16,645 nucleotides of DNA, taken from NCBI RefSeq assembly GCF_003334355.1, contig NZ_QOWP01000049.1; one strand, written 5' to 3'. A program made the position numbers and the translations under genes. The stretch is from Escherichia coli (GTDB lineage Bacteria > Pseudomonadota > Gammaproteobacteria > Enterobacterales > Enterobacteriaceae). Of the stretch, positions 4,571 through 4,894 are shown one piece after another. Positions within the stretch are counted from its first letter, which is position 1. Each line of letters opens with the position of its first letter. The notes beneath the pieces were generated by a model, which did no database searches, was not told where the DNA came from, and was given only the letters and a program-made list of their open reading frames with translations.

Positions 4571-4894
4571 CGCATCAGGTATACACCGCAGCGCCTGATG
4601 CGACGCTGTTGTGTCTTATCAGGCCTACGAGTTCAGTGCTGTGTGTAGGTCGGATAAGGCGCTCACGCCGCATCCGACAATAACAGCATTGCCTGATGCG
4701 ACGCTGTTGTGTCTTATCAGGCCTACGAGTTCAGTGCTGTGTGTAGGTCGGATAAGGCGTTCATGCCGCATCCGACAATAACAGCATTGCCTGATGCGAC
4801 GCTTGCGCGTCTTATCAGGCCTACGAGTTCAGTGCTGTGTAGGTCGGATAAGGCGTTCACGCCGCATCCGGCAATAACAGCCTTGCCTGACGCA
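4571..4894. repeat. REP/BIME array: three tandem ~98-bp units plus partial flanking copies
   Basis: Unit beginning GCCTGATGCGACGCTGTTGTGTCTTATCAGGCCTACGAG starts at 4593, 4691 and 4789 (period 98), with a partial fourth at 4885. Each unit holds REP-type palindromes (GCCTGATGCGACGC / GCGTCGCATCAGGC). Intergenic between convergent-side holC start and pepA stop. Confidence 0.85.

Follow-up and report, generated by a model that had tools for sequence, protein, structure and literature searches.

REP and BIME elements have been known since the 1980s. The palindromic unit (PU) is defined as an imperfect palindrome of 30-40 nt in which a GTAG is conserved on the 5' side of the stem foot and the stem contains an internal mismatch (PMC3333891). 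The BIME-2 class, as defined by Ton-Hoang et al. (PMC3333891), is made up of Z2 and Y units joined by short linkers and repeated several times in tandem, with the copies conserved per locus and their number variable among strains, while BIME-1 elements are single-copy and contain a Z1 unit and a long L linker, often with an IHF site (PMC3333891). The BIME-2 element REP325 consists of six Y-l-Z2 repeats with identical spacers between them (PMC4550694). REPs that have the GTAG and the stem mismatch are bound by the transposase TnpA-REP, which cuts the inverted unit or the linker next to them and is able to add units in vitro (PMC3333891). In the works cited by PMC3333891 as its references 2-4, REPs are reported to make the mRNA upstream of them more stable, to attenuate transcription and to be bound by Pol I and gyrase.

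The closest described element is the one in the same spacer of strain K-12, listed in Table DS3 of Sutormin et al. (PMC6379681) as "BIMEs2 4490136-4490219, 83 bp, <holC-<pepA". Gyrase cleavage sites were mapped there in vivo, with counts of 2/1/0/2 under Cfx/RifCfx/Micro/Oxo, i.e. ciprofloxacin, rifampicin plus ciprofloxacin, microcin and oxolinic acid, respectively (PMC6379681). Gyrase was further found to cut Y units more often than Z2 units, and the BIME-2 signals to rise when transcription was blocked (PMC6379681). The array described here lies in a 16,645-nt stretch of Escherichia coli DNA (the window; contig NZ_QOWP01000049.1, assembly GCF_003334355.1). It is already known, being a textbook BIME-2 at a locus catalogued in K-12, and with the locus in the BIME-2 catalogues and its gyrase cleavage mapped it matters little as a discovery. 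No REP feature is annotated at pepA-holC in the MG1655 RefSeq records of the collection searched.

Architecture and class of the array

A tandem array with a period of 98 bp, at positions 4571-4895, makes up 325 of the 355 bp of the pepA-holC spacer, within the co-oriented gene string pepA-holC-valS. Only the 30 nt adjoining holC are not repeat-derived, and the palindromic units extend from 23 nt after the pepA stop to 52 nt before the holC start. Each unit of the array comprises one Z2 and one inverted Y PU with short linkers between them, giving the order Z2-Y-Z2-Y-Z2-Y on the plus strand with linkers of 14/16 nt and 12 nt. The left (4571) and right (4895) boundaries are common to all the Escherichia alleles compared. 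The features, in plus-strand order, are as follows:

1242-4097, co-oriented with holC: valS, its start overlapped by the holC stop (ORF list)
4097-4540, minus strand: holC (DNA polymerase III chi), downstream of the array on the transcribed strand (ORF list and RefSeq annotation of matching genomes)
4541-4570, minus strand: holC leader (ribosome-binding region), 30 nt, forming the left boundary of the element; conserved in most Enterobacteriaceae genera and in the BIME-less E. coli allele
4571-4592: degenerate terminal half-unit, comprising a PU 3' arm remnant (CGCATCAGG) and then 13 linker-like nt; in register with the Y end and head-to-head linker at 13 of 22 positions
4593-4628, GTAG foot on the minus strand: Z2 unit 1, loop variant TGTTGTG, 34/37 to the Z2 consensus; hairpin -20.2 (plus) and -14.3 (minus) kcal/mol
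4629-4644: tail-to-tail linker 1, 16 nt, GAGTTCAGTGCTGTGT
4645-4678, GTAG foot on the plus strand: Y unit 1, 31/35 to the Y consensus; hairpin -17.4 / -19.2 kcal/mol; first half of the naRNA4 match at 4648-4723
4679-4690: head-to-head linker 1, 12 nt, AATAACAGCATT, unlike the REP325/naRNA4 linker
4691-4726, minus strand: Z2 unit 2, identical to Z2 unit 1 (34/37); the common three-unit allele has the loop TGCCGCG here
4727-4742: tail-to-tail linker 2, 16 nt, identical to linker 1; the common allele has the 14-nt GAGTTCGGTGCTGT here
4743-4776, plus strand: Y unit 2, loop GTTCATGCC, 31/35; identical to Y unit 2 of the O157-type allele
4777-4788: head-to-head linker 2, 12 nt
4789-4824, minus strand: Z2 unit 3, loop TTGCGCG, 36/37; within the naRNA4 match at 4746-4821
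4825-4838: tail-to-tail linker 3, 14 nt, with one GT fewer, so that unit 3 is 96 bp
4839-4872, plus strand: Y unit 3, 33/35; the first transcript hairpin past pepA, starting 23 nt after the stop codon
4873-4895: 12 terminal linker-like nt and then a truncated Z2 5' arm (GCCTGACGCAA), abutting the pepA stop; 20 of 23 positions in register
4896-6407, minus strand: pepA (leucyl aminopeptidase), upstream of the array on the transcribed strand, stop codon at 4896-4898 (ORF list and RefSeq annotation)

Tandem Repeats Finder recovered the array at 4593-4890 (period 98, 3.1 copies, 94 % matches, 0 % indels, score 526) and no second long-period array in the 16.6-kb window. A repeat search placed three 98-nt copies in register from position 4571, and identity at lag 98 over 4571-4895 was 0.72, against a median of 0.24 at other lags, with nothing close to this value elsewhere in the window. 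The inverted-repeat search of the region reported none, its seed and extension settings missing short imperfect stems, and the PUs were assessed by folding. All six are 34-36 nt long and retain the GTAG/CTAC foot and, in the folds, the internal stem mismatch, with hairpin energies between -14 and -21 kcal/mol on either strand. Compared without gaps to the Y and Z2 consensus sequences (taken from PMC11208160), the three Z2 units match at 34, 34 and 36 of 37 positions and the Y units at 31, 31 and 33 of 35. The PU pattern occurs four times in the window, where 0.13 occurrences are expected by chance, and a 555-nt query spanning the spacer hit a median of at least 36 places per E. coli genome. 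The elements thus have the properties of REP units: imperfect palindromes with a GTAG foot and stem mismatch, matching the consensus, extragenic and highly repeated. A 67-aa ORF on the plus strand (4709-4912) lies wholly within repeat sequence and was dismissed as mechanical.

Full-length matches to the Rfam family naRNA4 (RF02564; gathering score 59.5) occur on the plus strand at 4648-4723 (73.2 bits) and 4746-4821 (82.2 bits), and on the transcribed minus strand the scores are 51.7-51.9 bits, below the gathering score. As the naRNA4 model was built on the Y-linker-Z2 unit of REP325, these matches independently confirm the assignment of the Y and Z2 units. With Z2 and Y units alternating in inverted orientation, tandem copies, short linkers, conservation within the locus and a copy number varying between strains, the region at 4571-4895 can be classified with high confidence as a BIME-2 of three Z2 and three Y units, in which the 98-bp Z2-Y unit is present three times and degenerate half-units cap both ends.

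The earlier note, made from this DNA alone, had placed a REP/BIME array in the holC-pepA spacer and described it as filling that spacer with partial copies at its ends; the tandem-repeat search, the PU consensus matches and the flanking ORFs bear out the array, and the extent and the in-register end pieces agree with the rest of that description. It had also spoken of three nearly identical units, which suits units 1 and 2 (two columns differ) and is somewhat generous for unit 3, which differs from each of them at 9 of 98 columns. The 2-bp deletion it had seen in the third unit corresponds to a real difference of 96 against 98 bp, which lies in the tail-to-tail linker (GCTGT against GCTGTGT) and is a GT-dinucleotide length difference to which no direction is assigned. 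The description of the array as unusually regular did not hold up. BIME-2 elements are by definition tandem, locally conserved and strain-variable (PMC3333891) and REP325 has six units (PMC4550694); since homogeneous tandem copies are the norm for this class, the regularity of the array is ordinary.

Several other features were observed in the window. A solitary Z2 REP is located at approximately 8957-8995, between lptG and yjgR. Relative to strain A3, 2 bp are missing from a C/T-rich run near 9030, which changes the reading frame of yjgR close to the 3' end of the gene. The resulting ORF (8839-10566, minus strand) continues across the REP and the terminator hairpin of lptG to a point 18 nt inside lptG and is approximately 50 codons longer; the yjgR stop codon of strain A3 lies inside the REP. 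The left end of the window (1 to ~207) is a multi-copy IS1 terminus truncating yjgN, at a junction found in only four genomes. Towards the right end (11863-11944, 12134-13399 and 15357-16558), a tRNA-Leu is followed by a tyrosine integrase, a fragment of an HNH endonuclease, a gene for a hypothetical protein and then brxA and brxB of a type 1 BREX system, a stretch which looks like a tRNA-linked genomic island with a phage-defence system. The last 78 nt (16568-16645), following brxB, do not align in the brxB-containing genomes listed; they may belong to multi-copy matches in thousands of records, in which case the BREX operon would be interrupted after brxB. No complete E. coli genome of the collection searched matches the whole window end to end, the best match being 98.7 % over 98 %. 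Within pepA, on the opposite strand, there is a full-length match (5655-5849, plus strand; 174.7 bits) to Rfam Ysr276 (Yersinia sRNA 276, antisense class), which may come from nothing more than the conserved pepA coding sequence in the family seed.

Alleles, copy number and age of the element

The 555-nt spacer-spanning query matched the locus in all 5,426 complete E. coli genomes, with the match covering at least 80 % of the query in 4,019 of these and the flanks only in the remainder. Two samples of 59 chromosomes each were drawn at even spacing down the ranking, sample 1 with the full query and sample 2 with a flanks-only query, and gave the following unit numbers:

3 units: 27 chromosomes in sample 1, 28 in sample 2 (~47 %)
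2 units: 12 and 12 (~20 %)
1 unit, as in K-12: 5 and 5 (~8 %)
no BIME, with a BoxC/triplex element instead: 15 and 14 (~25 %)

No allele with more than three units was found in either sample of 59 chromosomes; a four-unit allele with a 455-bp spacer is present in E. coli SCPM-O-B-8794, from a species-representative collection. The earlier note had proposed comparing copy number across E. coli genomes, and the number does vary, from one to four units or none, with spacer length classes of 133, 159, 257, 353/355 and 455 bp. The spacer is thus a clean and easily typed length polymorphism, a possible strain marker which could also confuse short-read assembly.

An allele of the length seen in the window occurs in five of the 59 chromosomes of each sample (~8 %), with at most 411 records at least 99 % identical. 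The units of the commonest three-unit allele, for example in O157:H7, are all distinct, with 6-9 differing columns out of 98. The window allele shares its units 1 and 3 with this common allele, and its unit 2 combines the Z2 loop of unit 1 (TGTTGTG for TGCCGCG) and the 16-nt linker with a Y loop (GTTCATGCC) equal to that of unit 2 of the common allele. To judge from the aligned sequences, the window allele was evidently derived from the common three-unit allele by one conversion patch of at least 36 bp (~4705-4742, approximately 40 bp) from unit 1 into unit 2. The two-unit allele of EcPF16 corresponds to unit 1 plus unit 3, and the single unit of K-12 is a deletion chimera, with the Z2 of unit 1 and the linker and Y of unit 3. 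Unit number changes by one Z2-Y pair at a time (alleles of one to four units are seen); the direct repeats undergo deletion, duplication or conversion that depends on their homology, for which RecA, replication slippage or RAYT may be the driver. The change in these lineages has been mostly contraction and homogenisation, not recent expansion.

The spacer was further compared across bacterial species, each represented by one genome, by way of the conserved 3' end of pepA. The scan yielded 68 loci, 62 of which allowed extraction of the pepA-holC spacer. A BIME with identical boundaries is present in E. albertii (three units), E. whittamii (two units) and a cryptic Escherichia clade (Escherichia sp. 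MOD1-EC7003, one unit). These common insertion boundaries across the Escherichia species indicate that the insertion predates their split and goes back to the ancestor of the genus. Within an array the linker variants are mostly the same, and they tend to differ between species; the mean number of differing columns is 6.4 within arrays and 8.8 between arrays, values which fit concerted evolution. Outside Escherichia, the only conserved part of the spacer is the holC leader of 29-30 nt, found in most Enterobacteriaceae genera. Genus-specific REPs occur in the spacers of Citrobacter and Salmonella diarizonae, and tandem BoxC-like elements in those of Pseudocitrobacter. Further elements in the spacers of other genera, a set including Salmonella arizonae, Citrobacter and Kosakonia, are ERIC/IRU-like by the ERIC consensus.

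The BIME-less E. coli strains (~25 %; for example strain 4069) have a spacer of 133 bp, which carries CCCTCTCCCTTAGGGAGAGGGTTAGGGTGAGGGT downstream of the same 30-nt holC leader. Compared with Table 1 of PMC4666352, CCCTCTCCCTTAGGGAGAGGGTTAGGGTGAGGGT is a BoxC/PIT/TMECO intrastrand-triplex motif of type A. Two unrelated repeat families thus appear as alternative alleles of one E. coli spacer, and the spacer itself has the character of a repeat-element hot spot, a general landing place for small repeats. As the element is missing in a quarter of E. coli genomes, it is dispensable. Taken together, the alleles provide a worked example of BIME concerted evolution, by conversion, unit deletion and replacement with another repeat family.

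These alleles also bear on how the three units of the window arose. The earlier note had taken their high identity to suggest recent expansion by slippage or recombination, and a local expansion in this lineage, by slippage or unequal crossing-over, would account for units 1 and 2 differing at just 2 of 98 columns, for the minority status of the exact allele (~8 %; five of 59 per sample, and at most 411 records at 99 % or above) and for a locus at which the unit number does vary between one and four. Three units are, however, the commonest state (~47 %), with units that differ from one another at 6-9 columns, E. albertii likewise has three, and the insertion predates the species split. The mosaic unit 2, with the common Y loop GTTCATGCC beside the Z2 loop and linker of unit 1, needs only one conversion patch, and duplication of unit 1 would call for two parallel substitutions besides. 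Recent expansion is thus unlikely, and what stands of the suggestion is a recent event of another kind, the conversion patch that made unit 2 like unit 1. That the count of three is an artefact of assembly, through collapse or expansion of the tandem repeat, is scarcely probable: short reads could fail to resolve a 98-bp period in a 325-bp array, and REPs occur in many copies per genome, but the five chromosomes of sample 1, all complete genomes, are 100 % identical over the 555-bp query, and the five of sample 2 share a span of 785 bp, with flanks that are 100 % identical, different hosts being included. The allele lengths are moreover discrete, one exact unit apart, and their internal sequences are consistent. 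Assembly collapse is unlikely, and the conversion of an older three-unit array remains the preferred account.

Predicted roles at the DNA and RNA level

Two readings would give the array a specific protein or RNA partner. Recruitment of IHF, which the earlier note had included among the possible functions, is a property of the BIME-1 L linker, and the one point that speaks for a BIME-1/RIP-type element here is that some BIMEs are, in general, associated with IHF (PMC3333891). The PUs have the length of Z2 (36-37 nt) and not that of Z1 (~30 nt), the linkers are 12-16 nt and not a long L motif, the IHF core WATCAANNNNTTR is absent from the array (its sole match in the window is at 9322), and there are three tandem copies where such elements are single-copy (PMC3333891); this reading has next to no probability. 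It is very improbable, too, that the array encodes naRNA4-like noncoding RNAs which act jointly with HU to bridge DNA cruciforms and so condense the nucleoid, in the way reported for REP325. Its attraction lies in the two full-length plus-strand matches to RF02564 above the gathering score, in the likewise Y-linker-Z2 tandem architecture of REP325 and in a report that approximately 80 % of REPs are transcribed (PMC4550694). The strand above the threshold is, however, antisense to pepA-holC-valS, with the sense strand at 51.7-51.9 bits; no promoter-like site was seen on either strand of the spacer, the head-to-head linker is unlike that of naRNA4, and the element is missing in approximately 25 % of genomes. 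As the model is a BIME-2 unit, every BIME-2 will match it, and the matches are best read as family homology of BIME-2 units rather than as evidence for an sRNA gene.

On the reading of the array as an ordinary BIME-2, a role at the level of DNA can be predicted. Gyrase binding, also put forward in the earlier note, is well founded, in that the K-12 allele of the same element is a BIME-2 with in vivo cleavage sites (PMC6379681). By analogy with those data, which come from the one-unit K-12 allele, the three-unit array would act as DNA as a transcription-independent site of gyrase binding and cleavage, and its gyrase capacity may scale with the unit number. The array DNA would also be a target for REP-specific mobile elements, namely the RAYT/TnpA-REP transposase, whose substrate features are intact in all six PUs, and IS621. 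IS621 is a bridge-RNA-guided recombinase of the IS110 family. An IS621 copy is inserted in the pepA-holC BIME of E. coli CUVET20-416, inside the Z2 tail at ATCAGGCCT^AC (1465-3001 of the extracted locus), a sequence which is the published natural IS621 target. The exact 11-nt target is present three times in the window array, at 4618-4628, 4716-4726 and 4814-4824, so that each Z2 unit offers an exact natural target for IS621. The holC-pepA flanks lie more than approximately 700 bp apart in only three of the 5,426 genomes.

At the RNA level, a scan of positions 4300-5200 revealed no terminator-like site in the spacer and no sigma-70-like site on either of its strands, and no holC promoter was seen inside the spacer, the promoter scan being a crude one. 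The PU hairpins are followed by linkers that lack T runs, and with no terminator-like site on the minus strand the array does not qualify as an intrinsic terminator. A search of the literature on the operon structure of pepA, holC and valS returned nothing relevant; from the absence of a terminator or promoter match in this crude promoter scan, we infer that pepA and holC are probably co-transcribed. Transcripts of pepA would then read into the array and form six stable hairpins without a U-tract, and the 381-nt sense (minus-strand) RNA has a predicted minimum free energy of -158 kcal/mol (z = -7.5). By extrapolation from other REP/BIME loci, these hairpins would be expected to shield the pepA message against 3' exonucleases and may cause some attenuation of the read-through into holC-valS. 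REPs within approximately 15 nt of a stop codon reduce translation, and the distance from the pepA stop to the first hairpin is 23 nt. Any RNA effect would be quantitative and dispensable. The TGTTGTG loop variant in two of the three Z2 units weakens the sense-strand hairpin (-14.3 against -20.5 kcal/mol); these weakened hairpins, and the presence of another element in approximately 25 % of genomes, argue against strong selection for an RNA role at this locus.

A more speculative proposal, to which only a slight chance is given, is that the polymorphism of zero to four units directly upstream of holC and the essential valS tunes, in a heritable manner, the polarity of the operon or the local supercoiling and gyrase loading, or else supplies HU-binding naRNA-like RNAs. 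If this were so, the copy-number and BoxC/triplex alleles would have distinct fitness effects and would not be neutral junk.

Comparison with known systems

The array shares with BIME-1/RIP elements the combination of a Y and a Z-type unit in inverted orientation, and differs from them in that Z1, the long L linker with an IHF site and the single-copy state are all absent. It resembles the substrates of the REPtron/RAYT system (TnpA-REP, yafM) in that the GTAG 5' of the stem and the stem mismatch required for TnpA-REP binding and cleavage are kept in six of six PUs, and published amplification models gain or lose whole BIME units, as occurs between the alleles here. The window is nevertheless without a RAYT gene, and the chimeric alleles are equally explained by homologous recombination or slippage. 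The equivalent 16.4 kb of strain A3 encodes yjgN, valS, holC, pepA, ytgA, lptF, lptG, yjgR, ahr, tRNA-Leu, an integrase, an HNH fragment, a hypothetical protein and brxA/B/C, with no Y1 transposase among these genes.

REP325, the BIME-2 between yjdM and yjdN and the source of naRNA1-6, is likewise made up of tandem Y-linker-Z2 units with a constant spacer between them. It has six units where the pepA-holC array has three, and a head-to-head linker of AAcGGUGCCGACU against AAUAACAGCAUU; furthermore, at pepA-holC the strand matching the naRNA4 RNA model is antisense to the flanking genes. The BIME-2 between holC and pepA in K-12 has the same alternating inverted Z2 and Y units, short linkers, genomic site and boundaries, and its unit corresponds to the first Z2 and the last Y of the array in the window. 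The two differ in that K-12 has one Z2-Y unit where the window has three, with units 1 and 2 of the latter homogenised by the conversion patch.
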